A stretch of 64,000 bases of DNA from Eledone cirrhosa (lineage: Eukaryota). The stretch spans positions 44,454,001 to 44,518,000 of the forward strand of contig OZ024744.1 of assembly GCA_964016885.1 (NCBI GenBank). The letters run 5' to 3'. The notes under the pieces are model-generated. The model saw nothing but the letters and a program-made list of their open reading frames with translations, was not told where the DNA came from and ran no database searches. Below, piece by piece: positions 1 to 64,000 of this stretch; position 1 is the first letter of the stretch; each line of letters opens with the position of its first letter. Made by a program: the position numbers and the translations under genes.

Positions 1-80
1 TCGTAGCACCCGGCCGATTAACCCACTCGATATGCAAATTGGGCTACTCAACCGTTAATATGCATAAGGTAAATAAATAC

Positions 81-167
81 GTTCAACAATCTGGCAGGAA
101 GGTATACGTTGCTGACGATAGCTAATAAGCTTGAAACTAGTACATCGTTCCTTTGTCAGTGTTGAAC
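81..167 (+). ncRNA. Type I hammerhead ribozyme, first unit of the array
   Basis: ACGTTG-CTGACGA-T-AGCT-AATA-AGCT-T-GAAA-CTAG-TA^CATCGT. Stem I extends through AAGG/CCTT, CTGGCA/TGTCAG and GTTCAACA/TGTTGAAC. Predicted cleavage after 142. This copy has one U.U mismatch in stem I. Confidence 0.8.
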
Positions 168-1803
168 AAACGAGCAACGATGGTTGCTAGACACTACGGC
201 TTAATACGGGATGTTTGTTTACAAACGCACCGAGTATTATAATAAATGTTCGGTGAATCCATACGTGCATATATATATATATGTGTGCATGTATGTATAT
301 ATATATACATAGTACTGTACGTCTGTATACATATATGGATGTACGTGTACATACTTATATTTAAGTAACACTCGTACTAAGAGTGGAAAATGAAATTTCG
401 TTTTATTTTTTTTCCTTTTATCGTATTCGGTGCACCCAGCCGATTATCCCACTCGATATGCAAATTGGGCTACTCAGCCGTTAATATGCATAAGGTAAGT
501 ATATACGTTCAACAATCTAGCAGGAAGGTATACGTTGCTGACCATAGCTAATAAGCTTGTAACTAGTACAGCGTTCCTTTGTTAGTGTTGAACAAACGAG
601 CAACTATGGTTACTAGACACTACGGCTTAATACGGGATGTTTGTTTAGAAACAAACCGAGCATTATAATAAATCTTCGGTGAATCCATACGTGCATATAT
701 ATATATGTGTGCATGTATGTTTATATATGTACATACTACTGTACGTCTGTATACATATATGTAAGTACGTGTACATACTTATATTTAAAAACAGCCGTAC
801 TAAGAGTGGGAAATGAAATTTCGTTTCATTTTTTCCGTTTATCGTTTTCGGTGCACCTGGCCGATTAACCCACTAGATATGCTAATTGGGCTACACAGCC
901 GTTAATATGCATAAGGTAAGTATATACGTTCAACAATCTGGCAGGAAGGTATACGTTGCTGACGATAGCTAATAAGCTTGTAACTAGTACAGCGTTCCTT
1001 TGTCAGTGTTGAACAAACGAGCAACGATGGTTGCTAGACACTACGGCTTAATACGGGATGTTTGTTTACAAACACACCGAGCATTATAATAAATGTTCGG
1101 TGAATCCATACGTGCATATATATATATATGTGTGCATGTATGTTTATATATATACATACTACTGTACGTCTGTGTACATATATGTATGTACGTGTACATA
1201 CTTATATTTAAGTAATAGCCATACTAAGAGTGGGAAATGAAATTTCGTTTCATCTTTTCCATTTATCGTTTTCGTAGCACCCGGCCGATTAACCCACTCG
1301 ATATGCAAATTGGGCTACTCAACCGTTAATATGCATAAGGTAAATAAATACGTTCAACAATCTGGCAGGAAGGTATACGTTGCTGACGATAGCTAATAAG
1401 CTTGAAACTAGTACATCGTTCCTTTGTCAGTGTTGAACAAACGAGCAACGATGGTTGCTAGACACTACGGCTTAATACGGGATGTTTGTTTACAAACGCA
1501 CCGAGTATTATAATAAATGTTCGGTGAATCCATACGTGCATATATATATATATGTGTGCATGTATGTATATATATATACATAGTACTGTACGTCTGTATA
1601 CATATATGGATGTACGTGTACATACTTATATTTAAGTAATAGCCGTACTAAGAGTGGAAAATGAACTTTCGTTTTATTTTTTTTTTCGTTTATCGTATTC
1701 GGTGCACCCGGCCGATTATCCTACTCGATATGCAAATTGGGCTACTCAGCCGTTAATATGCATAAGGTAAGTATATACGTTCCACAATCTAGCAGGAAGG
1801 TAT

Positions 1804-1846
1804 ACGTTGCTGACGATAGCTAATAAGCTTGAAACTAGTACAGCGT
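1804..1846 (+). ncRNA. Type I hammerhead ribozyme core, fully paired representative copy
   Basis: ACGTTG CTGACGA TAGCTAATAAGCTT GAAA CTAG TA CAGCGT: 6-bp stem I (one G.U), 4-bp stem II, palindromic ACTAGT stem III, GUA cleavage triplet. Confidence 0.85.
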
Positions 1847-4800
1847 TCCTTTGTCAGTGTTGAACAAACGAGCAGCGATGGTTTCTAGACACTACGGTTT
1901 AATACGGGATGTTTGTTTACAAACACACCGAGAATTATAATAAATGTTCGGTGAATCCATACGTGCATATATATATGTGTGCATGTATGTATATATATAC
2001 ATACTACTGGAAGTCTGTATACATATATGTATGTACGTGTACATACTTATATTTAAAAACAGCCGTACTAAGAGTGGCAAATGAAATTTCGTTTCATCTT
2101 TTCCATTTATCGTTTTCGTAGCACCCGGCCGATTATCCCACTCGATATGCACATTGGGCTACTCAGCCGTTAATATGCATAAGGTAAGTATATATGTTCA
2201 ACAATCTAGCAGGAAGGTATACGTTGCTGACGATAGCTAATAAGCTTGAAACCAGTACAGCGTTCCTTTGTCAGTGTTGAACACACGAGCAACGATGGTT
2301 TCTAGACACTACGGCTTAATACGGGATGTTTGTTTACAAACATACCGAGAATTATAATAAATGTTCGGTGAATCCATACGTGCATATATATATGTGTGTA
2401 TGTATGTAGATATATACATACTACTGGAAGTCTGTATACATATATGTATGTACGTGTACATACTTATATTTAAAAACAGCCGTACTAAGAGTGGGAAATG
2501 AAATTTCGTTTCATTTTTCCGTTTATCGTTTTCGGCGCACCTGGCCGATTAACCCACTCGATATGCAAATTGGGCTACTCAGCCGCTAACATGCATAAGG
2601 TAAGTATATACGTTCAACAATCTGGCAGGAAGGTATACGTTGCTGACGATAGCTAATAAGCTTGAAACTAGTATAGCGTTCCTTTGTGAGTGTTGAACAA
2701 ACGAGCAACGATGGTTGCTAGACACTACGGCTGTATACGGGATGTTTTTTTACAATCACACCGAGCATTATAATAAATGTACGCTGAATCCATACGTGCA
2801 TATATATACATATATGTGTACATGTATATATATATATATACACATACTACTGTACGTCTGTATACATATATGTATGTACGTGTACATACTTACATTTAAA
2901 ACAGCCGTACTAAGAGTGGGAAATGAAATTTCGTTTCATTTTTCCGTTTATCGTTTTCGGTGCACCCGGCCGATTAACCCACTCGATATGCAAATTGGGC
3001 TACTCAGCCGTTAATATGCATAAGGTAAGTATATACGTTCAACAATCTAGCAGGAAGGTATACGTTGCTGACCATAGCTAATAAGCTTGAAACTAGTACA
3101 GCGTTCCTTTGTTAGTGTTGAACAAACGAGCAACTATGGTTACTAGACACTACGGCTTAACAGGGGATGTTTGTTTACAAACAAACCGAGCATTATAATA
3201 AATCTTCGGTGAATCCATACGTGCATATATAAACGTGTGCATGTATGTATATATATATACATAATACTGTACGTCTGTAGACATATATCTATATACGTGT
3301 ACATACTTATATTTAAGTAACAGCGGTACTAAATGTGGGAAATGAAATTTCGTTTCATCTTTTCCGTTTATCGTTTTCGGTGCACCCGGCCGATTAACCC
3401 ACTCGATATACAAATTGTGCTACTCAGCCGTAAATATGCATAAGGTAAGTATATACGTTCAACAATCTGGCAGGAAGGTATACGTTGCTGACGATAGCTA
3501 ATAAGCTTGAAATTAGTACAGCGTTCCTTTGTCAGTGTTGAACAAACGAGCAACGATGGTTGCTAGACACTACGGCTTAATACGGGATGTTTGTTTACAA
3601 ACACACCGAGCATTATAATAAATGTTCTGTGAATCCATACGTGCATATATATATATATGTGTGCATGTATGTTTATATATATACATACTACTGTACGTCT
3701 GTGTGCATATATGTATGTACGTGTACATACTTATATTTAAGTAATAGCCGTACTAAGAATGGGAAATGAAATTTCGTTTCATCTTTTCCATTTATCGTTT
3801 TCGTAGCACCCGGCCGATTAACCCACTCGATATGCAAATTGGGCTACTCAACCGTTAATATGCATAAGGTAAATAAATACGTTCAATAATCTGGCAGGAA
3901 GGTATACGTTGCTGACGATAGCTAATAAGCTTGAAACTAGTACAGCGTTCCTTTGTCAGTGTTGCACAAACGAGCAACGATGGTTGCTAGACACTACAGC
4001 TTAATACGGGATGTTTGTTTACAAACACACCGAGCATTATAATAAATGTTCGGTGAATCCATACGTGCATATATATATGTGTGCATGTATGTATATATAT
4101 ATAAATAGTACTGTACGTCTGTATACATATATGTATGTACGTGTACATACTTATATTTAAGTAACACTCGTACTAAGAGTGGAAAATGAAATTTCGTTTT
4201 ATTTTTTTTCCTTTTATCGTATTCGGTGCACCCGGCCGATTATCCCACTCGATATGCAAATTGGGCTACTCATCCGTTAATATGCATAAGGTAAGTATAT
4301 ACGTTCAACAATCTGGCAGGAAGGTATACGTTGCTGACGATAGCTAATAAGCTTGAAATTAGTACAGCGTTCCTTTGTCAGTGTTGAACAAACGATCAAC
4401 GATGGTTTTTGACAGTACGGCTTAATACGGGATGTTTGTTTACAAACACACCGAGCATTATAATAAATGTTCTGTGAATCCATACGTGCATATATATATG
4501 TGTGTGCATGTATGTTTATATATATACATACTACTGTACGTCTGTGTACATATATGTATGTACGTGTACATACTTATATTTAAGTAATAGCCGTACTAAG
4601 AGTGGGAAATGAAATTTCGTTTCATCTTTTCCATTTATCGTTTTCGTAGCACCCGGCCGATTAACCCACTCGATATGCAAATTGGGCTACTCAACCGTTA
4701 ATATGCATAAGGTAAATAAATACGTTCAACAATCTGGCAGGAAGGTATACGTTGCTGACGATAGCTAATAAGCTTGAAACTAGTACATCGTTCCTTTGTC

Positions 4801-6826
4801 AGTGTTGAACAAACGAGCAACGATGGTTGCTAGACACTACGGCTTAATACGGGATGTTTGTTTACAAACGCACCGAGTATTATAATAAATGTTCGGTGAA
4901 TCCATACGTGCATATATATATATATGTGTGCATGTATGTATATATATATACATAGTACTGTACGTCTGTATACATATATGGATGTACGTGTACATACTTA
5001 TATTTAAGTAATAGCCGTACTAAGAGGGGAAAATCAAATTTCGTTTCATCTTTTCCATTTATCGTTTTCGTAGCACCCGGCCGATTATCCCACTCGATAT
5101 GCAAATTGGGCTACTCAGCCGTTAATATGCATAAGGTAAGTATATATGTTCAACAATCTAGCAGGAAGGTATACGTTGCTGACGATAGCTAATAAGCTTG
5201 AAACCAGTACAGCGTTCCTTTGTCAGTGTTGAACACACGAGCAACGATGGTTTCTAGACACTACGGCTTAATACGGGATGTTTGTTTACAAACATACCGG
5301 GAATTATAATAAATGTTCGGTGAATCCATACGTGCATATATATATGTGTGCATGTATGTAGATATATACATACTACTGGAAGTCTGTATACATATATGTA
5401 TGTACGTGTACATACTTATATTTAAAAACAGCCGTACTAAGAGTGGGAAATGAAATTTCGTTTCATTTTTCCGTTTATCGTTTTCGGCGCACCTGGCCGA
5501 TTAACCCACTCGATATGCAAATTGGGCTACTCAGCCGCTAACATGCATAAGGTAAGTATATACGTTCAACAATCTGGCAGGAAGGTATACGTTGCTGACG
5601 ATAGCTAATAAGCTTGAAACTAGTATAGCGTTCCTTTGTGAGTGTTAAACAAACGAGCAACGATGGTTGCTAGACACTACGGCTGTATACGGGATGTTTT
5701 TTTACAATCACACCGAGCATTATAATAAATGTACGCTGAATCCATACGTGCATATATATACATATATGTGTGCATGTATATATATATATATACACATACT
5801 ACTGTACGTCTGTATACATATATGTTTGTACGTCTGTATACATATATGTATGTACGTGTACATACTTACATTTAAAACAGCCGTACTAAGAGTGGGAAAT
5901 GAAATTTCGTTTCATTTTTCCGTTTATCGTTTACGGTGCACCCGGCCGATTAACCCACTCGATATGCAAATTGGGCTACTCAGCCGTTAATATGCATATG
6001 GTTAGTATATACGTTCAACAATCTGGCAGTAAGGTATACGTTGCTGACGATAGATAATAAGCTTGAAACTAGTACAGCGTTCCTTTGTCAGTGTTGAACA
6101 AACGAGCAACGATTGTTGCTGGACACTACGGCTTAATACGGGATGTTTGTTTACAAACACACCGAGTATTATTATAAATGTTCTGTGAATCCATACGTGC
6201 CTGTATATATGTGTGCATGTATGTATATATATATATATACATACTACTGTACGTCTGTATACATATATGTATGTACGTGTACATACTTATATTTAAGTAA
6301 CAGCCGTACTAAGAGTCGGAAATGAAATTTCGTTTCATTTTTTCCGTTTATAGTTTTCGGTGCACCCAGTTGATTAACCCACTCGATATGCAAATTGGGC
6401 TACTCAGTCGTTAATACGCATAAGGTAAGTATATTAATGTTATTAAAGATATACTGTGAAAGGAAGTAGAAGAGTGGATGAGTTATGAATTTAGAGGAAT
6501 TATTTAGTGTTTAAGTTTGTTTTTATGTAATGTAATATGTGTGCGTAATTTTTGTAAATAGTTTGTTTATCAATGAGCGCAGAAAGCAAAGAAGACAATA
6601 ATGTTTAAGAAAGAAAAAATCTAACATGAAAATATATATGTTTACGAAATATTTTCTAATGGTAATAATATAATATAATAAAGAAGATTAGTTAGGGTTT
6701 GTTTTTATGTATTGTAATATGTAATATGTAAAAGTCAGACGAGCATGACAGGAAAAAAAATATAAGGAACTTAGGAGGAAAAATCTAACGTAAAAAAAAA
6801 TGTTTATGTTTACGAAGGATTATTCA

Positions 6827-55640: not shown

Positions 55641-58600
55641 TAATTTTAACATTACATTTATAAACTATGTTGTTAACAAGACAATTTCCTTTTAATGGGC
55701 AGTTTGCTTTGTTTCTACAGTTACAACCTTTCGTTAATTCAGTATTTGAGGAGATATTATGGTTAGTTTGATGTATTGGTGGTATACTTATGGTATTCTT
55801 ACATTTATATGCATTATAGGCACTTATATTTTGTTTTATGTTATTTGTTGTTGAGTATGAGAATTTAACTGTAGGCCTATTTAAGATTTGATGGTATTTG
55901 TGGTTTGGCGGGAAGTTTTTCTCTAGGATATAAAAAAATTTTTTAGCAATATTATCCTTAATTTGTAAATTAAATGGAGCATTATACCAAGTAACTCGTC
56001 TATTACGGTTTCTATGTTGTTTATTATTTTTATAGGTTGTATCGTGATGTTTACTAGGAGGATTAATGTTAATGATCTAACCACGCACATTTTTAGTTAG
56101 ATTTATAGATTTAGGTGTTTTATCTTGTTTATTAGGAGTTTTATTATTAACATTTATTAGAGTTGTATGATGAGTAGTTTTTTGAGAGTTACTATACTTT
56201 ATATTAGAAGAGTTGTTGGTATTTTGGGGTATAGTGTGGGTGGCATTTAGGTGTGTACTTTTCATTTGGTGTTTGTTGGTAATATTAGGTTGTATGTTTA
56301 TAGTATTTTTAGTAGAAGGTATATATTCTAATCTATTTTTGTGGCCACTTCTATCTAGAGCTTCGTTATAGAAGGTCGCATTTTTATCAAATACATCTTG
56401 GTTAGAAGAAAGGTTAGAAATTCTAAGTGATATATTATATGCAAGGTTTTTAAGGATAGATTTAGGGTGATTAGATTGTGAGTGTATGTAGTGTAAGTTT
56501 TGGTTGGGTTTATGGTAAGGTTGGTAGATACCCGTAGCTAAGTCTAAAGTTATATCTAGGAAATTTACTACTTTACTTGTTTTTTCAAAAGTAATATGAA
56601 GACTATAATAGTCTTTAAGGAAAGTTCTAATATGCTTTTTGTTTTTTTCTATTTCTGAAAGGCTAAGGTTGTTGGAAAGAAGAAGACAGTCATCACGATA
56701 TAAACCACCTTTAAGGTGGGGAAAGGAGGCATTTATGTTGAAAAGGAGAAAGAGGCCCACAAGATCAGTAATTTGGGCGGAATCGCTTGAACCCATAGTA
56801 ATATCAAATAGATTACTATATGTGTTTCTGGTCCAGTATTCATTCTGAAATTCAATAAGTGTTAGTCTAGCATGTGTAATAATATTAATGTCATCCAAAG
56901 TTAAGTTAGATCTATTTTTAGCAAATATCAATGCTTTGTTCAGGAGTATAGGTGATATAGAAGAATAGTAATTATCTATATCAAATTGTAGAAATGAAGC
57001 AGAAGATTCTATTTGCTCATATATAGGAGCTACTTCTAACAATTTTAAGGTAAGGTTTAATACCCACAAACATAGTTTTTAAAATGCGGCACTGGCTAAT
57101 ACAACATCTCTAGCAGAAAAAATCAATAGTTATAAAAATAAGAATATAGAATATGATATGACCTGGAGTGTGCTCAAAAGAGCCACCCCTTATCAAAATA
57201 ATAGAAATGAATGTAGATTATGTTCCCAAGAACTATTTGAAATAATGAAATCTAAGGATATCCTATTAAATAAACGACAGGAATTAATTATATCGTGTAA
57301 TCATAAACTAAGAAAAACATTTAAATATTATAAACCTAATTAGAAATTAATATATAATTTAATTTAAATGTTAGTTAACCTATAAATTTAATTTAATTAA
57401 AATTCTACTACAGATGAGATTATAAAATATTGTGTAATCATAAATTGTGAAAAACTTTTAAATATTACTAATATATACTTCGTAAATTAATTTATAGATT
57501 AATTTTAATTTATTTAACCTTTTATTAAAATTCCTTTACAGATAAAATATAACAAAATATCGTGTATTCAATGACAGAGAAATAATTTTTAATATTATAG
57601 ACCTAATTAATGTACATTTTAGAAATATATTTATAATTTGGTTTTAAATTAATTTAATTCGCTTAAAATTAATATCCTAATACAGATGGATTGCAGAGTG
57701 TCTTGTAATCATAGACTGAGATAGGTTTTGGATGTATACCTAGTTAATATATTCTTTGAAATTTTTGAAAAAATATGTATATGTATGTATATATATGTAT
57801 ATATATATATATATATATATGTATATGTGTATATATATATATATGTGTATGTATTAATTTTAATTTCTGTTTACCTATAATTATATTCTACTATAGATAA
57901 AATACAATATCTGTTTTAATTATTATAAACCAAATTAACATATACTATAGAAATTAATATATAATTTTTAATTTAGTTAACCCATAATTTATATTCTACT
58001 ACCGATGTAATACTTTATTTGTTTTTTTTCCCTATTACTAAATTCATTCCCTAATATTGATACCATAACGTTAATAATTTTAATTTAGTTATACTATAAT
58101 TAATACTCTACTACTATTTAACTTCAAAATTCCGCTTCAAATATATTATAAACCTAAGTAGTATACACCTTAGAAATCAATATATTAACTATCTTTAATT
58201 TAGTTAACCTATAATTAATAGTCTACTTATATTAAAATGCATAATTTTGCCTTCTTTCTTACATTTCCTAATACTGAAACTACTATGTAAACACATATTA
58301 TGATCTAAATGCAGATTAATATTCTATGTTTCTTGAAACCTATATTTACTATAATCCCCCCCCTCACCCCCCTCACCCCTATTATTATTTGTATTTGTAA
58401 GCGTGGATGTATGTATGTATATGTAGGTAGGTATGTATGTTTGGGTGTTTGTATGTGAGTATAAAAATACATATGTGCGCATGTAAATAAGGGTGTATGA
58501 TTGTATGTATATATATATATATATATGTGTATATATATATGTGTATATGTATATATATATATATGTATCTATGTATTTATGTGGGTATATGTGTGTATGT

Positions 58601-58754
58601 ATATGTATGCACATGTATACGTCTATGTGTATATGTGTGTATGTGTATATATGTACGTATGTGCGCATGTATATGTGAGTGTGTGTATATATATATATAT
58701 ATATAAATATATATATTTGTAGTTGATGTGTGTATGTGTATATATATATGTATG

Positions 58755-58789
<35 letters not shown>

Positions 58790-58832
58790 GTATATGTATG
58801 TGTGTGCATATTTGTCTGACTGTGTGTATTAA

Positions 58833-58863
<31 letters not shown>

Positions 58864-58931
58864 TATTTTTTTATTTCTTTATTTTTTTATATATATGTAT
58901 ATATATATATCATCAGGAAATATATATATAT

Positions 58932-59864
58932 GGAATAAATGCTCTGAAATAGCGATATATATGTGAATATAGACATAGAATATTCGAAAATATTCTGTAT
59001 GTTTATAATAAACATTTTGAAGACCTAATCGCTATGGATATGTAGTCCTGATGATTTCTAACGAGAATGAAACGCGTAGATTACTTCCCTTGCTTTTATC
59101 GAGAATCTAATTGTAATACGTGACGTATTCTATTCTATAGCGATTAGGTCTTCAAAATGTTTATTATAAACATACAGAATATTTTCGAATATTCTATGTC
59201 TATATTCACATATATATCGCTATTTCAGAGCATTTATTCCAATTTCTAATTTCTGCCGGACCGGCAACCGCTCTTTCAAACCAGTTCCTGTACACAGCTA
59301 AGTATTCTATAAGTCTCTAGCTGTGTCATTCTCGATAAAAGCACTGGATATGTAGTCCTGATGATTTCTAACGAGAATGAAACGCGTAGATTACTTCCCT
59401 TGCTTTTATCGAGAATCTAATTGTAATACGTGACGTATTCTATTCTATAGCGATTAGGTCTTCAAAATGTTTATTATAAACATACAGAATATTTTCGAAT
59501 ATTCTATGTCTATATTCACATATATATCGCTATTTCAGAGCATTTATTCCAATTTCTAATTTCTGCCGGACCGGCAACCGCTCTTTCAAACCAGTTCCTG
59601 TACACAGCTAAGTATTCTATAAGTCTCTAGCTGTGTCATTCTCGATAAAAGCACTGGATATGTAGTCCTGATGATTTCTAACGAGAATGAAACGCGTAGA
59701 TTACTTCCCTTGCTTTTATCGAGAATCTAATTGTAATACGTGACGTATTCTATTCTATAGCGATTAGGTCTTCAAAATGTTTATTATAAACATACAGAAT
59801 ATTTTCGAATATTCTATGTCTATATTCACATATATATCGCTATTTCAGAGCATTTATTCCAATT
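58932..59864 (+). mobile_element. Non-coding 310-bp tandem element (~2.7 units) with one hammerhead per unit and an inverted 5' segment; retrozyme or Penelope pseudo-LTR type
   Basis: Exact 310-bp period (cores at 59048, 59358, 59668). 58932-59035 is the reverse complement of 59137-59240. Inserted in a (TA)n tract and absent from the left arm near 53740. Confidence 0.9.
59328..59416 (+). ncRNA. Type I hammerhead ribozyme (also cores at 59048 and 59668)
   Basis: ATTCTCGATAAAAGCA-CT-GGA-TAT-GTAGTC-CTGATGA-T-TTCT-AACG-AGAA-T-GAAA-CGCG-TA^GATTAC-T-TCC-CT-TGCTTTTATCGAGAAT: 16-bp outer stem, 6-bp stem I, palindromic ACGCGT stem III. Confidence 0.9.
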
Positions 59865-60322
59865 TATATATATATATATATATGTATATATGTGTGTGTA
59901 TATATATGTATGTGTGTATGTATGTGTATGTATGTGTGTGTGTGTGTGTACGTGTGTTTATATTTATATGTGTATATGTATCTCTATTTATATATGTATA
60001 TATGTGTATGTATATCCCTTTATTTATGTATGTCTGAGTTGTGTGAGCGTGTGTATATGTATGTGTATGTATGTGTGTGTGTGTGTGTACGTGTGTATAT
60101 ATTTATATGTGTATATGTATCTCTATTTATATATGTATATATGTGTATGTATATCCCTTTATTTATGTATGTCTGAGTTGTGTGAGCGTGTGGTGGTGTT
60201 TGTATGTATATACGCATACATGGATGTGTATGTATGTGTATATATGCGTATATGTATGTGTGTATGTATGTGAGTATATATGTATGTCTATGTATGAGTA
60301 TGTATGTGTGTGTATGTATATA

Positions 60323-60365
<43 letters not shown>

Positions 60366-60424
60366 TATATGTGTGTGTGTATGTATATATATCTTTGTAT
60401 ATGTGTATGTGTATATGTGTGTAT

Positions 60425-60486
<62 letters not shown>

Positions 60487-60572
60487 ATATGTGTATATAT
60501 ATATATACATATATGTGTGGGTATGTATGTGTATGTGTGTATATACATGAGTGTGTTTATATATGTGTGTAG

Positions 60573-60640
<68 letters not shown>

Positions 60641-60927
60641 TGTGAATGTGTATATATATATATGTATGTGTGTATGTTTATATATATATATGTGTGTATA
60701 TGTGTATATGTCTATGTATTTATATGTGTATATGTATGTGTCTCTATATGTATGCGTGTGTGTATGTGTATGTGTATTTATATGGTGTGTGTATGTATAT
60801 GTATGTGTATGTATGTGTTTACGTATATGTGTATGTATATGTATGTATATATATGTATATATATATATATATATATATGTATATGTATGTATATCGATGT
60901 ATATTTTATATTTTACTTGTTTATATC

Positions 60928-61003
<76 letters not shown>

Positions 61004-61813
61004 CTTAATATATTTCTTTTTTCTTTTTCTTTTTATTTCTAAATTTATAGATACATTTATAAATAGGCAGTTTGCTGACACCGCTAAATACTGACCTTTT
61101 CTCCCCCCCCCCCCCCCCCCCCCACCAACTTTCTGTATCTGGATCTAAATATGTGTGGCAGTGTTTATGTGCGCGCATTAATGTCCATATGCTTATGATA
61201 ATAGTATATACACATATATGTGTGTGTATGTATGTTCGTGGTTGTGTGTATGTTTATGCGTATACGCGCGTGTGTGTGTGAATGTACGTATATGTGTGAG
61301 TATATGAATGTGTGTATATATTTATTTTTTTATTTTTATATTTATTTGTTTATATGCTTATACGTATTTTATCTGTAGATTATAAACATACAGAGACATT
61401 AGCCTTGAATTTTTGTATTTACATACATCTTTTCGGCATGCGTATGCATGTGAACATATATTTTTATGCATATCTGTGAACGAAGTTACTTACATATATA
61501 CACACACCTAACTGTATAAACTTTTTGTGTTTTCATTGGTCAATTTGAACTCTGTTCCCAAACAGATCTGTAATTTTGAATTGTTGTTATTATCAATAAA
61601 TATATTTCATTATTTCTGAAGACGGCATATATATGTGTTGGTATGTATATTTAATTTTGATAGTTTGTATAATTTTGTATAACTTTGTACATAGATCTGT
61701 TGAATATGCATGCCAATTCTAACACATATATATCCTAGAAACGATCGTTAAATAATGAACTTTTTTTGTTTAATATAAGGAACTGTTTCATTGTTTTATT
61801 CATTATTTTTTTA

Positions 61814-61854
<41 letters not shown>

Positions 61855-61985: not shown

Positions 61986-62113
<128 letters not shown>

Positions 62114-62422
62114 AATCTACCAAAATATACGGTAGTGTCCAATCAGTATGAAGAACGCAATGTAATCCAAATATCATGAAAAGAGAAGATGCATTCAAAA
62201 ATTTTCGATGAAAATCACAGGAAAACAGAGTCAAGATAAATTAATCAAAACAATGAATAATTACAAAGAACAAGTTCCTTATATTAAAAAATTCATCATT
62301 TTACAATCGTTTCTAGGATATATATGTTTTTATCGGTATATATATCATATAGATCTATGTAAAAATATTACAAACTATCAGAGGAAATATACATACCTTC
62401 ACATATATATGCTGTCTTCAGA

Positions 62423-62478
62423 AATAATTGTTTCTACTTTAGGAACAAGGCCAGAAATTACCCAGTGCATTACTGGTA
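62423..62478 (-). mobile_element. SINE 3'-tail fragment
   Basis: Reverse complement of the SINE tail with AATAAT duplication; absent from the homologous site at 51941-51950. Confidence 0.75.
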
Positions 62479-62745
62479 AATAATGAGATTTGTTTATTGA
62501 AAAAAAAACAACAAGAGTTAATATAATAGGTCTGTTTTGGGAACAGGTTTTGAATTGACCAATAGAAAATTAGTTAGAGGTCAAGTTGATAGAATAGTAG
62601 TAGTAGTAGTAGAAATTTAATTCAAGGGTAGAGGAATGCAGACTTATGTTTTGAATGGAAAGAATACTTTGAATGAAAAGAATACTTTGGGGATGAAAAG
62701 AGGTCAAGCCGATGAAGGGTACACGAAAATTTGATGTTATTAAAG

Positions 62746-62931
62746 AATAATTGTTTCTACTTTAGGCACAAGGCCAGCAAATACCCAGTACATTACTGGT
62801 ACTTTATTTTATTGACCCCGTAAGGATGAAAGGCAAAGTTAACCTCGGCGGGATTTGAACTCAGACTGTAAAGGGACGTAACTATGCTAGAAAGCATGGC
62901 GTCCAACCCTGTACCGATACTGCCAATTCAC
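62746..62931 (-). mobile_element. Full-length SINE flanked by ~155-bp direct repeats
   Basis: Same family as 6827. Flanks 62591-62751 and 62932-63086 are near-identical. Confidence 0.88.
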
Positions 62932-63607
62932 AGAATAGTAGTAGTAGACATTTAATTTAAGGGTAGAGGAATGCAGACTTATGTTTTGAATGGAAAGAAT
63001 ACTTTGAATGAAAAGAATACTTTGGGGATGAAAAGAGGTCAAGCCGGTGAAGGATACACGAAAATTTGATGTTATTAAAGAATAATGTTAAAAACGAAGG
63101 AGAGTAAAATTTTAGGGAAAAGGTATTAGTGAGAAATACTAATCTTATTTAAAACACAAGGAATTTAGATCTGTAACAAGAAATTAAATTAATTGATAGG
63201 TATACTTATAGGGATAAATTTATATTAATTCATATGGATGTGATAAATAAGAATTAGATGTTATTAAAGAATGTTGTTAAAAACGAAGGAAAATAACATT
63301 TTAGGATAAGTGTAGTAGTGAGAAATACCAATCATATATAGACTACAAGGAATCTAGATTCATAACAGGAAATTAAATTAATTTATATGTATACTTTTAG
63401 GTATTAATTTTAGGAAAAGAGAGCTGTAAGAGGAAATGAAATTATGAAGTTCTCTGTAGTAAAGTACTAATTATAGGTTAACTAAATAAAAAAAAACTAA
63501 TTATAATAACATGTAAAATATAATTGTAAGGTGTATATTAATTAGATTTATAATATTTGAAAGTTCTTCTAATTCTATGATTGCAAGATATAATTAATTC
63601 TTGTCGC

Positions 63608-64000
63608 AAAGCCTTGATATTTGCCAAAAATAGATCAAACTTAACTATGGATGACATTAATATTATTATCACGCACGCTAGACAAACACTACTGGAATTT
63701 CAGAAGGAATACTGGACCAGAAATACACATAGTAATCTATTCCACATTACTATGGGTTCTAGTGATTCTGCCCAAATTACCGATCTTGTGGGCCTCTTTC
63801 TTCTATTTACCATAAATTATTCTTTTCCCCACCTTAAAGGTAGTTGCTATCGTGATGACTGTCTTCTTCTTTCCACTAATCTTAGCCTATCAGAAATTGA
63901 AAAAAGTAAAAAACTTATTAGAACTTTCCTCAAAGACTATTATAATCTCACTATTACATTTGAGAACACCAGTAAAATAGTTAATTTCCTAGATATAACT
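63608..64000 (+). mobile_element. Second Penelope-like RT (5' truncated, open to window end)
   Basis: KALIFAKNRSNLTMDDINIIITHARQTLLEFQKEYWTRN...MGSSDSAQITDLVGLF...CYRDDCLLL...VNFLDIT, closely similar to the 56077-57002 RT. Confidence 0.92.

Follow-up and report, generated by a model that had tools for sequence, protein, structure and literature searches.

How a short non-coding repeat with predicted hammerhead ribozymes came to occupy only one arm of a large palindrome is the question raised by the stretch of Eledone cirrhosa DNA analysed here, which is 64,000 nucleotides long and is referred to as the window. The repeat unit is 310 bp long, has a GC content of 34.5%, and is present in 2.68 tandem copies with no mismatch in a forward arm (59035-59865, plus strand) that runs from unit position 267 to unit position 167, position 1 being the first base 3' of the predicted cleavage site. 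The 3' end of this arm abuts (TA)n. The inverted arm, an exact 105-bp match (58931-59035, minus strand; unit positions 59 to 163), overlaps the forward arm by 1 nt, and its outward 3' end enters (TA)n. The initial annotation had recognized this inverted segment, but with a length of 104 bp. It had also denied the element any coding capacity, in agreement with the longest stop-free stretch of 59 codons among the six frames of the looped unit. An ORF with RT plus GIY-YIG, by which an autonomous Penelope-like element (PLE) would be known, was absent from the unit in a six-frame reading. The circular fold of the unit was better than the mean of 100 shuffles (z -3.9). All hairpins listed previously were found, with the qualification that the TGTTTATTATAAACA repeat is part of a longer predicted hairpin (unit 59-147). 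A 16-bp internal inverted repeat (59091-59343, plus strand; 59091-59106 with 59328-59343) would extend helix I in the monomer and contains four sites at which other copies have fixed A>G changes.

Assigned by motifs rather than by a tree, the host palindrome (51602-61824) is a 5'-truncated, two-armed PLE of the Hydra clade. Its arms were mapped at 51734-55640 and 57003-61824, with the left arm extending another 132 nt, to 51602. On the minus strand, it retains the 3' part of an RT (56077-57078) and a linker with a GIY-YIG remnant (55300-56076), with one stop between the two (55300-57078 as a whole), and it has a predicted minimal hammerhead of its own with a very long helix II, which was read by eye (61606-61759, plus strand). 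Pfam named no part of the host ORF. At least 150 genomic copies match the host RT piece at 99-100% (150 of 31,287 candidates scored). All 10 host-family loci picked for long frames hold frames of 827-830 aa, which carry RWR (RWK-like), DKT, a CxCX5C linker, CxxC, and CxH; the host also has a C-terminal EN, a hammerhead, and a (TA)n target. Such a set is given as the marks of the Hydra clade in the relevant section of PMC8557442; thus, the match of the full-length host copy places the host in this clade. Neptune, considered before the motif comparison with that section, was replaced by Hydra. Read from the sequence, the hammerhead element is inserted into a TA tract of the host's 3' region. It occupies the right arm only, and the left arm keeps an empty (TA)n site, as had been proposed, but at about 53705-53730 instead of near 53740 and with a few different microsatellite bases. 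The 310-bp unit was not found in any of the 10 host-family loci. The two ends of the host lie 132 nt apart, compared with the usual 30-40, and its 3' region of about 3.6 kb is rich in microsatellites. A second, more diverged host-like PLE 3' end with an RT piece is present at 62109-64000.

Other repeats in the window include an array of about 15 units of 424 bp at 6-6434 (plus strand), 12 of which have a type I hammerhead-like core; the array probably represents a retrozyme family of greater age. At 46844-47827 (minus strand) lie two units of 472 bp, whose hammerhead core is akin to this array. The window also contains a 23-kb satellite with a 31-bp unit (11164-34635), and two tRNA-like matches (48035-48106 and 49726-49797) within a 1.7-kb duplicated repeat with inverted segments.

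In the 310-bp element, type I hammerheads are predicted on the plus strand at 59036-59088, 59346-59398, and 59656-59708 from sequence, pairings, and covariation in related families, with cuts expected after 59078, 59388, and 59698. The three identical hammerheads at 310-bp spacing claimed by the initial annotation were thereby recovered: the CTGATGA cores lie at 59048, 59358, and 59668, and the GUA triplets end at the cleavage positions that it had named. As read from the core and the pairings, the order of motifs in each unit is helix I with an extension, CUGAUGA, helix II, GAAA, a minimal helix III, and the GUA triplet. Helix II has a U-U mismatch at its base, and helix III carries a palindromic CGCG, which in the modelled structure would pair in a dimer. 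The predicted catalytic fold is weak (-1.4 kcal/mol), and the isolated motif was no better than shuffles (local z -0.11). An Rfam search returned no hammerhead match for the ribozyme, either at the gathering score or at E<=5; MIR4228 and other sub-threshold matches were dismissed as hairpin or TA artefacts. When the unit was aligned with 10 sequences from older related families, 91.6% of cells were paired and 12 of 24 pairs had two-sided changes, and the covariation score of these 11 rows was reached by none of 500 shuffles; these values are to be read with the rows being kin, the structure partly derived by RNAalifold from the same rows, and the unit being out of register in helices I and III. 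None of 37 fixed variants fell in 11 core positions, compared with about 1.3 expected, which is not significant evidence of selection on the catalytic core. In one sister family (L196, L199, L182, L211), UUGAUAA replaces CUGAUGA in many copies, with a compensatory change of the core from C3-G8 to U3-A8. According to the part of a preprint on Xenopus retrozymes considered here (10.64898/2026.07.22.740005), only one of nine predicted ones cleaved in vitro.

The window copy belongs to a large family. The 43-nt ribozyme pattern had 4,033 exact matches in the 3.0-Gb genome and the control pattern had none; together with the empty site in the other host arm, these matches indicate dispersed, mobile copies. 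The number of insertions with exact ends is about 1,200, as estimated from 634 A ends and 575 B ends (defined below) counted on the forward strand only, since reverse counts were inflated through double listing. We mapped 112 insertions, namely that in the window, those in 109 stretches, and those in five extensions, nearly all on contig C1 and among the matches listed. Ten of the stretches were chosen by the ribozyme, 64 by the A end, 34 by the B end (in most cases where no exact match to A was present), and a single one served as the control. In the first 61 insertions, 120 of 122 outer ends adjoined (TA)n, and no LTR was present. PLE fragments within the loci stood apart from the arrays, and the copies were not attached to a coding element, the alternative that the initial annotation had raised against its own reading. 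Contigs of four sequencing runs of unrecorded kind contain the unit, and two of them join back by 310, a pattern that tandem DNA and a circle would produce alike.

The insertions turned out to have a common geometry. A total of 96 out of 112 are two-armed with their 3' ends outward, and both ends could be seen in 93 of these; only one arm was found in the other 16, among which one is cut by masked sequence and some have second arms under the length cut-off. In 91 of the 93 two-ended insertions, one end lies at unit positions 155-172 (A, mode 165) and the other at 117-140 (B, modes 130 and 139), independent of whether the locus had been picked by the ribozyme (9/9), by the A end (59/59), or by the B end (23/23). 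Only the control locus and the window copy deviate, the latter as the sole A+A case with both ends at about 165. In the window, the end point of both arms is site A (unit 163-167; 59861-59865, plus strand), the main putative RT start site; site B (unit 130-139; 59828-59837, plus strand), the second putative start site of the family, has no end there. A 13-nt motif between the two (59838-59850, plus strand) is common to older sister families and is a candidate RT-recognition signal. A genome-wide count of forward-strand patterns revealed no ends at the cleavage site and one locus with ends at another AT-rich position. Thus, the suggestion that copies might start at permuted positions did not hold for the outer ends, which are fixed at two sites, while the inner ends are scattered.

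The scatter of the inner ends is slightly uneven (KS p 0.037), and 3 of 122 fall within 5 nt of the cleavage site, as against 3.9 expected. Where the inner joints lack inserted bases, microhomology of at least 2 nt was found in 30 of 43 (18% expected); inserted bases are present in 21 of 64 joints, and two joints used the 16-nt internal inverted repeat. Neither arm is the longer throughout (A in 37 of 60 insertions; rho 0.26, p 0.044). One joint (L052:2199-2470) contains 272 nt of GC-rich foreign sequence with no Rfam match, perhaps captured through template switching.

If each array was copied from a single circular monomer, its units should share the variants of that monomer. Among 97 insertions of at least three units, we distinguished 39 haplotypes, of which 28 were seen once, and 18 of the 97 had a private variant in every unit. 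Private variants that could be tested were present in both arms in 9 of 9 cases in the first set, and the haplotypes of the two arms agreed in 57 of 59 insertions, compared with a mean of 0.19 for shuffled pairs. Variants confined to single units numbered 136 in 1,070 units (0.13 per unit). A monomer bottleneck would lead about one insertion in eight to fix a variant of its source unit, and the 18 of 97 seen are near this value. None of the 75 testable single-unit variants was mirrored in the opposite arm (287 comparable units), and 667 crossings of the cleavage site revealed no unit-specific indel and seven substitutions within 5 nt. Rolling reverse transcription of a 310-nt circle, which had been proposed from the 2.7-mer in the window, is therefore supported by the family, through its fixed variants, its scar-free crossings of the cleavage site, and the A>G changes described below, but not by the 2.7-mer alone.

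Not all arrays fit a single monomer. In six insertions (the second insertion of L051, L060, L069, L070, L094, and L159), variants that are not fixed are common to both arms, in mirror register in three of them (L069, L094, and L159). These could not have come from one monomer circle; gene conversion or the copying of a linear template explains them better. Repeated variant blocks occur in the longest arrays (L050, L051, and L075), which indicates that part of their length arose from later DNA duplication. The clearest case of expansion at the DNA level after insertion is L075 with L143, with a 45-unit arm and repeated variant blocks. Haplotype switches within arrays were seen in the A arm only of L060, and after two units in both arms of L094.

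The identity of the units in the window had been taken as a sign of recent activity. The family is indeed young, with 0.04% single-unit variants, but at this level a 936-nt copy has a chance of about 68% of carrying no changes, so that the window copy is not demonstrably younger than the average. Its haplotype is the commonest one (24 of 97 insertions).

The fixed and the single-unit variants differed in their spectra. Sense-strand A>G accounted for 18 of 32 fixed substitution events, compared with 7 of 114 single-unit changes (Fisher p 2e-9), with 13 lineage-defining variants, one of them A>G, set aside by our choice. When all distinct fixed substitutions were counted, A>G made up 11 of 34 (p 2e-4). 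The change recurred on four backgrounds each at unit positions 20 and 276. Of the 10 A>G sites, nine lie in paired regions of the predicted fold and all lack a 5' G, consistent with the preferences of ADAR. Selection for pairing was rejected as the source of the excess, since the contrast persisted among structure-compatible changes (A>G in 18 of 27 fixed vs. 7 of 58 single-unit), and since C>T, which is likewise tolerated as a wobble, occurred once among the fixed and 19 times among the single-unit changes. A bias of an RT or polymerase could still underlie the A>G excess. The strand specificity of this excess points to an imprint of an RNA template, as far as genomic variants can tell, and one edited circle would give the observed pattern of an edit in every unit of both arms. 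In a passage of PMC7229834, editing is named as a possible cause of the heterogeneity of mussel circles.

Which enzyme could produce such ends? In the passages of PMC8557442 considered here, PLEs carry a 5' copy in inverted orientation, and one of their ends has a tail of 30-40 bp. According to the portion of PMC11167929 at hand, purified Poseidon PAc cuts and extends both strands, and its RT starts at two internal RNA sites that bound the tail; in vitro, unprocessed RNA served as its template and its own ribozyme was dispensable. By this analogy, the spacing of A and B matches the tail signature of PLEs and agrees with their RT start sites. Internal initiation needs no RNA 3' end, and a circle could therefore act as a template.

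The genome contains three young PLE families with long open frames: that of the host (827-830 aa), a 758-aa family, and an 821-aa family. The 758-aa family is of the Hydra type, and 26 of 28 bases of its hammerhead core and helix II match the unit, a score above all 300 of 300 shuffles. Around the start sites, no homology with the three families was found, the hammerhead core and helix II being common to one of them. The 13-nt motif was absent from 10 host loci, eight loci of the 758-aa family, and 12 of the 821-aa family (the pLTR being present in only four), and local alignment of unit positions 55-200 to the pLTRs of the three families gave no score above shuffles. Homology to the older sister families extends along the unit; these families have preserved the 13-nt motif located between B and A, and their copies frequently terminate at the A-equivalent site (4,799 matches). 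None of 30 of their loci had a PLE ORF attached within 1.5 kb.

Beside the window copy lies a 10-nt piece of a hammerhead core with a short AT spacer (58910-58930, minus strand), which is missing from the empty site. The piece itself, ATCATCAGGA at 58910-58919, had been described as complementary to the ribozyme core. It is, but its match to the hammerhead of a different PLE family is longer (11 nt) than that to the unit (10 nt), and it may thus derive from another element rather than from the 310-bp unit, judging from these short matches. Flanked by TA on both sides it is unique in the genome; the junction of the piece with TA occurs at 35 genomic places, and all 12 of those examined continue as hammerhead sequence of the 758-aa family or of relatives of that family. 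One of the 12, L038, lies directly beyond an A end of the 310-bp family. The piece may be flanking sequence acquired by read-through from an L038-like locus; it may instead stem from an abortive start on one or the other RNA, or be a stub of separate origin. L038 was rejected as the template of the entire window copy, since the forward arm (831 nt) is longer than the A arm of L038 (736 nt). The flank beside the L038 array recurs 3.3 kb further on in the same orientation, at L243 and L244 (G000:C1:48537869 and 48541165).

Taken together, these results make it likely that the element is an animal non-LTR retrozyme, whose RNA, an edited monomer circle of 310 nt, serves a PLE enzyme as the template for reverse transcription from two internal sites. 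From the geometry, the end positions, and the variant patterns observed in the insertions, we infer every RNA step of this cycle, as well as the identity of the helper. An array would be transcribed, and its hammerheads, probably as dimers, would cut out monomers, which a host ligase would close into circles. The structured RNA would sometimes undergo A-to-I editing. An RT/GIY-YIG protein of a PLE, probably of the Hydra clade, would cut (TA)n on both strands, and synthesis would be primed from both 3' ends, one starting at about unit position 165 and the other at about 130-139. Both polymerases would then travel round that one circle, with the number of turns varying, and the two cDNAs would be joined at a scattered point via microhomology. 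We regard it as an evenly balanced matter whether the insertions also record the reaction of PLEs themselves, that is, a dimeric PLE enzyme that uses two fixed sites of one covalently closed, ADAR-edited ribozyme RNA to extend a (TA)n break at both of its ends.

An unlikely alternative for the family as a whole is that PLE twin priming took place on a linear multimer that was transcribed from an array already present and was left uncleaved, with the hammerhead being incidental and the arrays growing at the DNA level. The variants shared by both arms, mirrored or offset, in six insertions, the block duplications within long arrays, the weak ribozyme fold, and the activity of PAc on unprocessed RNA (as given in the cited portion of PMC11167929) are all compatible with such a template, and the 10-nt piece in the window, which resembles the flank of L038, could be read-through sequence. 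Nevertheless, nearly all variants are either fixed or confined to one unit, and a linear multimer would need a homogeneous master for each of the 39 haplotypes in 97 insertions, 28 of them seen once. Moreover, RNA edits on it would strike single units, yet the A>G excess is among the fixed variants, and it predicts mirrored single-unit variants, whereas 75 such variants over 287 comparable units were unmirrored. This route probably applies to a minority of insertions, about 5-10%. A cleaved linear monomer, on which a telomerase-related RT jumps repeatedly from the 5' end to the 3' end, would give an identical all-or-none variant pattern and would also fix RNA edits. However, jumps elsewhere leave inserted bases (the 21 of 64 inner joints mentioned above), while the 667 crossings of the cleavage site bear no unit-specific indel, and inner ends show no excess at that site (3 of 122 within 5 nt, 3.9 expected), which makes this template improbable.

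More improbable still is an origin at the DNA level, either by rolling-circle amplification of small, circular extrachromosomal DNA or by fold-back of the first cDNA, from which the second arm would be synthesised. The homogeneous arrays and the three mirror-register cases could be obtained in this way, but the strand-specific A>G changes indicate an RNA template, and the fixed A and B ends agree with PLE RT start sites. Fold-back from A, in addition, requires one arm to be consistently longer, and A is longer in just 37 of 60 insertions; the arm lengths thus rule it out as a general mechanism. That palindromes and tandem arrays are difficult to assemble could suggest an assembly artefact, or the arrays could reflect ordinary satellite expansion. 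Both are scarcely credible, since the copies are dispersed, differ in their flanks, and have two precise ends and haplotypes specific to each locus, and since the other host arm has an empty site.

We assign the 310-bp repeat, as a new family, to the non-LTR retrozymes, a class already known. As in the metazoan members of this class described by Cervera and de la Pena in 2020 (PMC7229834) and in a review (PMC7761336), both in the sections considered here, the repeats are non-coding, in tandem, within the range of 150-450 bp, and have a GC content below 50%, and as in PMC7229834, each unit has one type I hammerhead. The U-U mismatch at the base of helix II is also found in the axolotl HHR_Amex2, in the description available. 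Copying of a circle into tandem cDNA by an RT was proposed in the corresponding section of PMC7229834, as it is here. In the published accounts considered, circles and cleavage of metazoan retrozymes were demonstrated and mobilisation was proposed; in the 310-bp family the reverse holds, since its mobilisation is observed while its cleavage and circles are predicted. Unlike this family, the retrozymes in the sections of PMC7229834 and PMC7761336 considered are not described as having two-armed inverted insertions, ends fixed at A and B, or an imprint of A>G changes. According to a passage of the review, retrozyme repeats show no motif indicating a helper.

Li, Clavereau and Pollet (2026; 10.64898/2026.07.22.740005), in the portion of their preprint considered, likewise treat retrozymes as non-autonomous PLE derivatives that co-occur with PLEs. 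Their case is based on pLTR homology and co-distribution, and their scenario is one of local tandem amplification; for the 310-bp family, the link is the insertion geometry, with no pLTR homology beyond the hammerhead in the three PLE families tested. This geometry resembles that of EN+ PLEs of the Hydra clade, which, in the section of PMC8557442 considered, have an inverted 5'-truncated arm, a 30-40-bp tail, (TA)n targets, and a hammerhead near the 3' end. The two internal RT start sites of Poseidon PAc and the extension of both strands (PMC11167929, in the portion considered) have a parallel in our family that we deduced from the ends. In contrast to PLEs, the 310-bp family has no ORF, can have as many as about 20 units in an arm that bears no mark of subsequent duplication, and pairs its A and B ends one per arm almost invariably. 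Literature searches, whose coverage was of journals outside subscription, yielded no published report of the two-armed architecture or of edited retrozyme insertions, and the insertion architecture and the variant pattern are proposed or left open, rather than demonstrated, in the sections of PMC7229834, PMC7761336, PMC8557442, and PMC11167929 considered.

How the circles of animal retrozymes return to DNA, and how the inverted arms and tails of PLEs originate, are open questions according to the same sections of these four papers. Both questions could be addressed in vitro with this family, since it provides about 1,200 young events and a fixed substrate of 310 nt on which two start sites have been mapped, along with candidate enzymes whose frames are open. 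For the development of genome-writing tools, an RT able to copy a small RNA circle into the two ends of a break would be of interest as well. If the insertions do record the PLE reaction on such an edited circle, internal initiation by PLEs would be what lets RNA circles retrotranspose, the inverted arm and the tail of PLEs would be explained as a single event, and RNA editing would be a main source of heritable variants in a mobile RNA.
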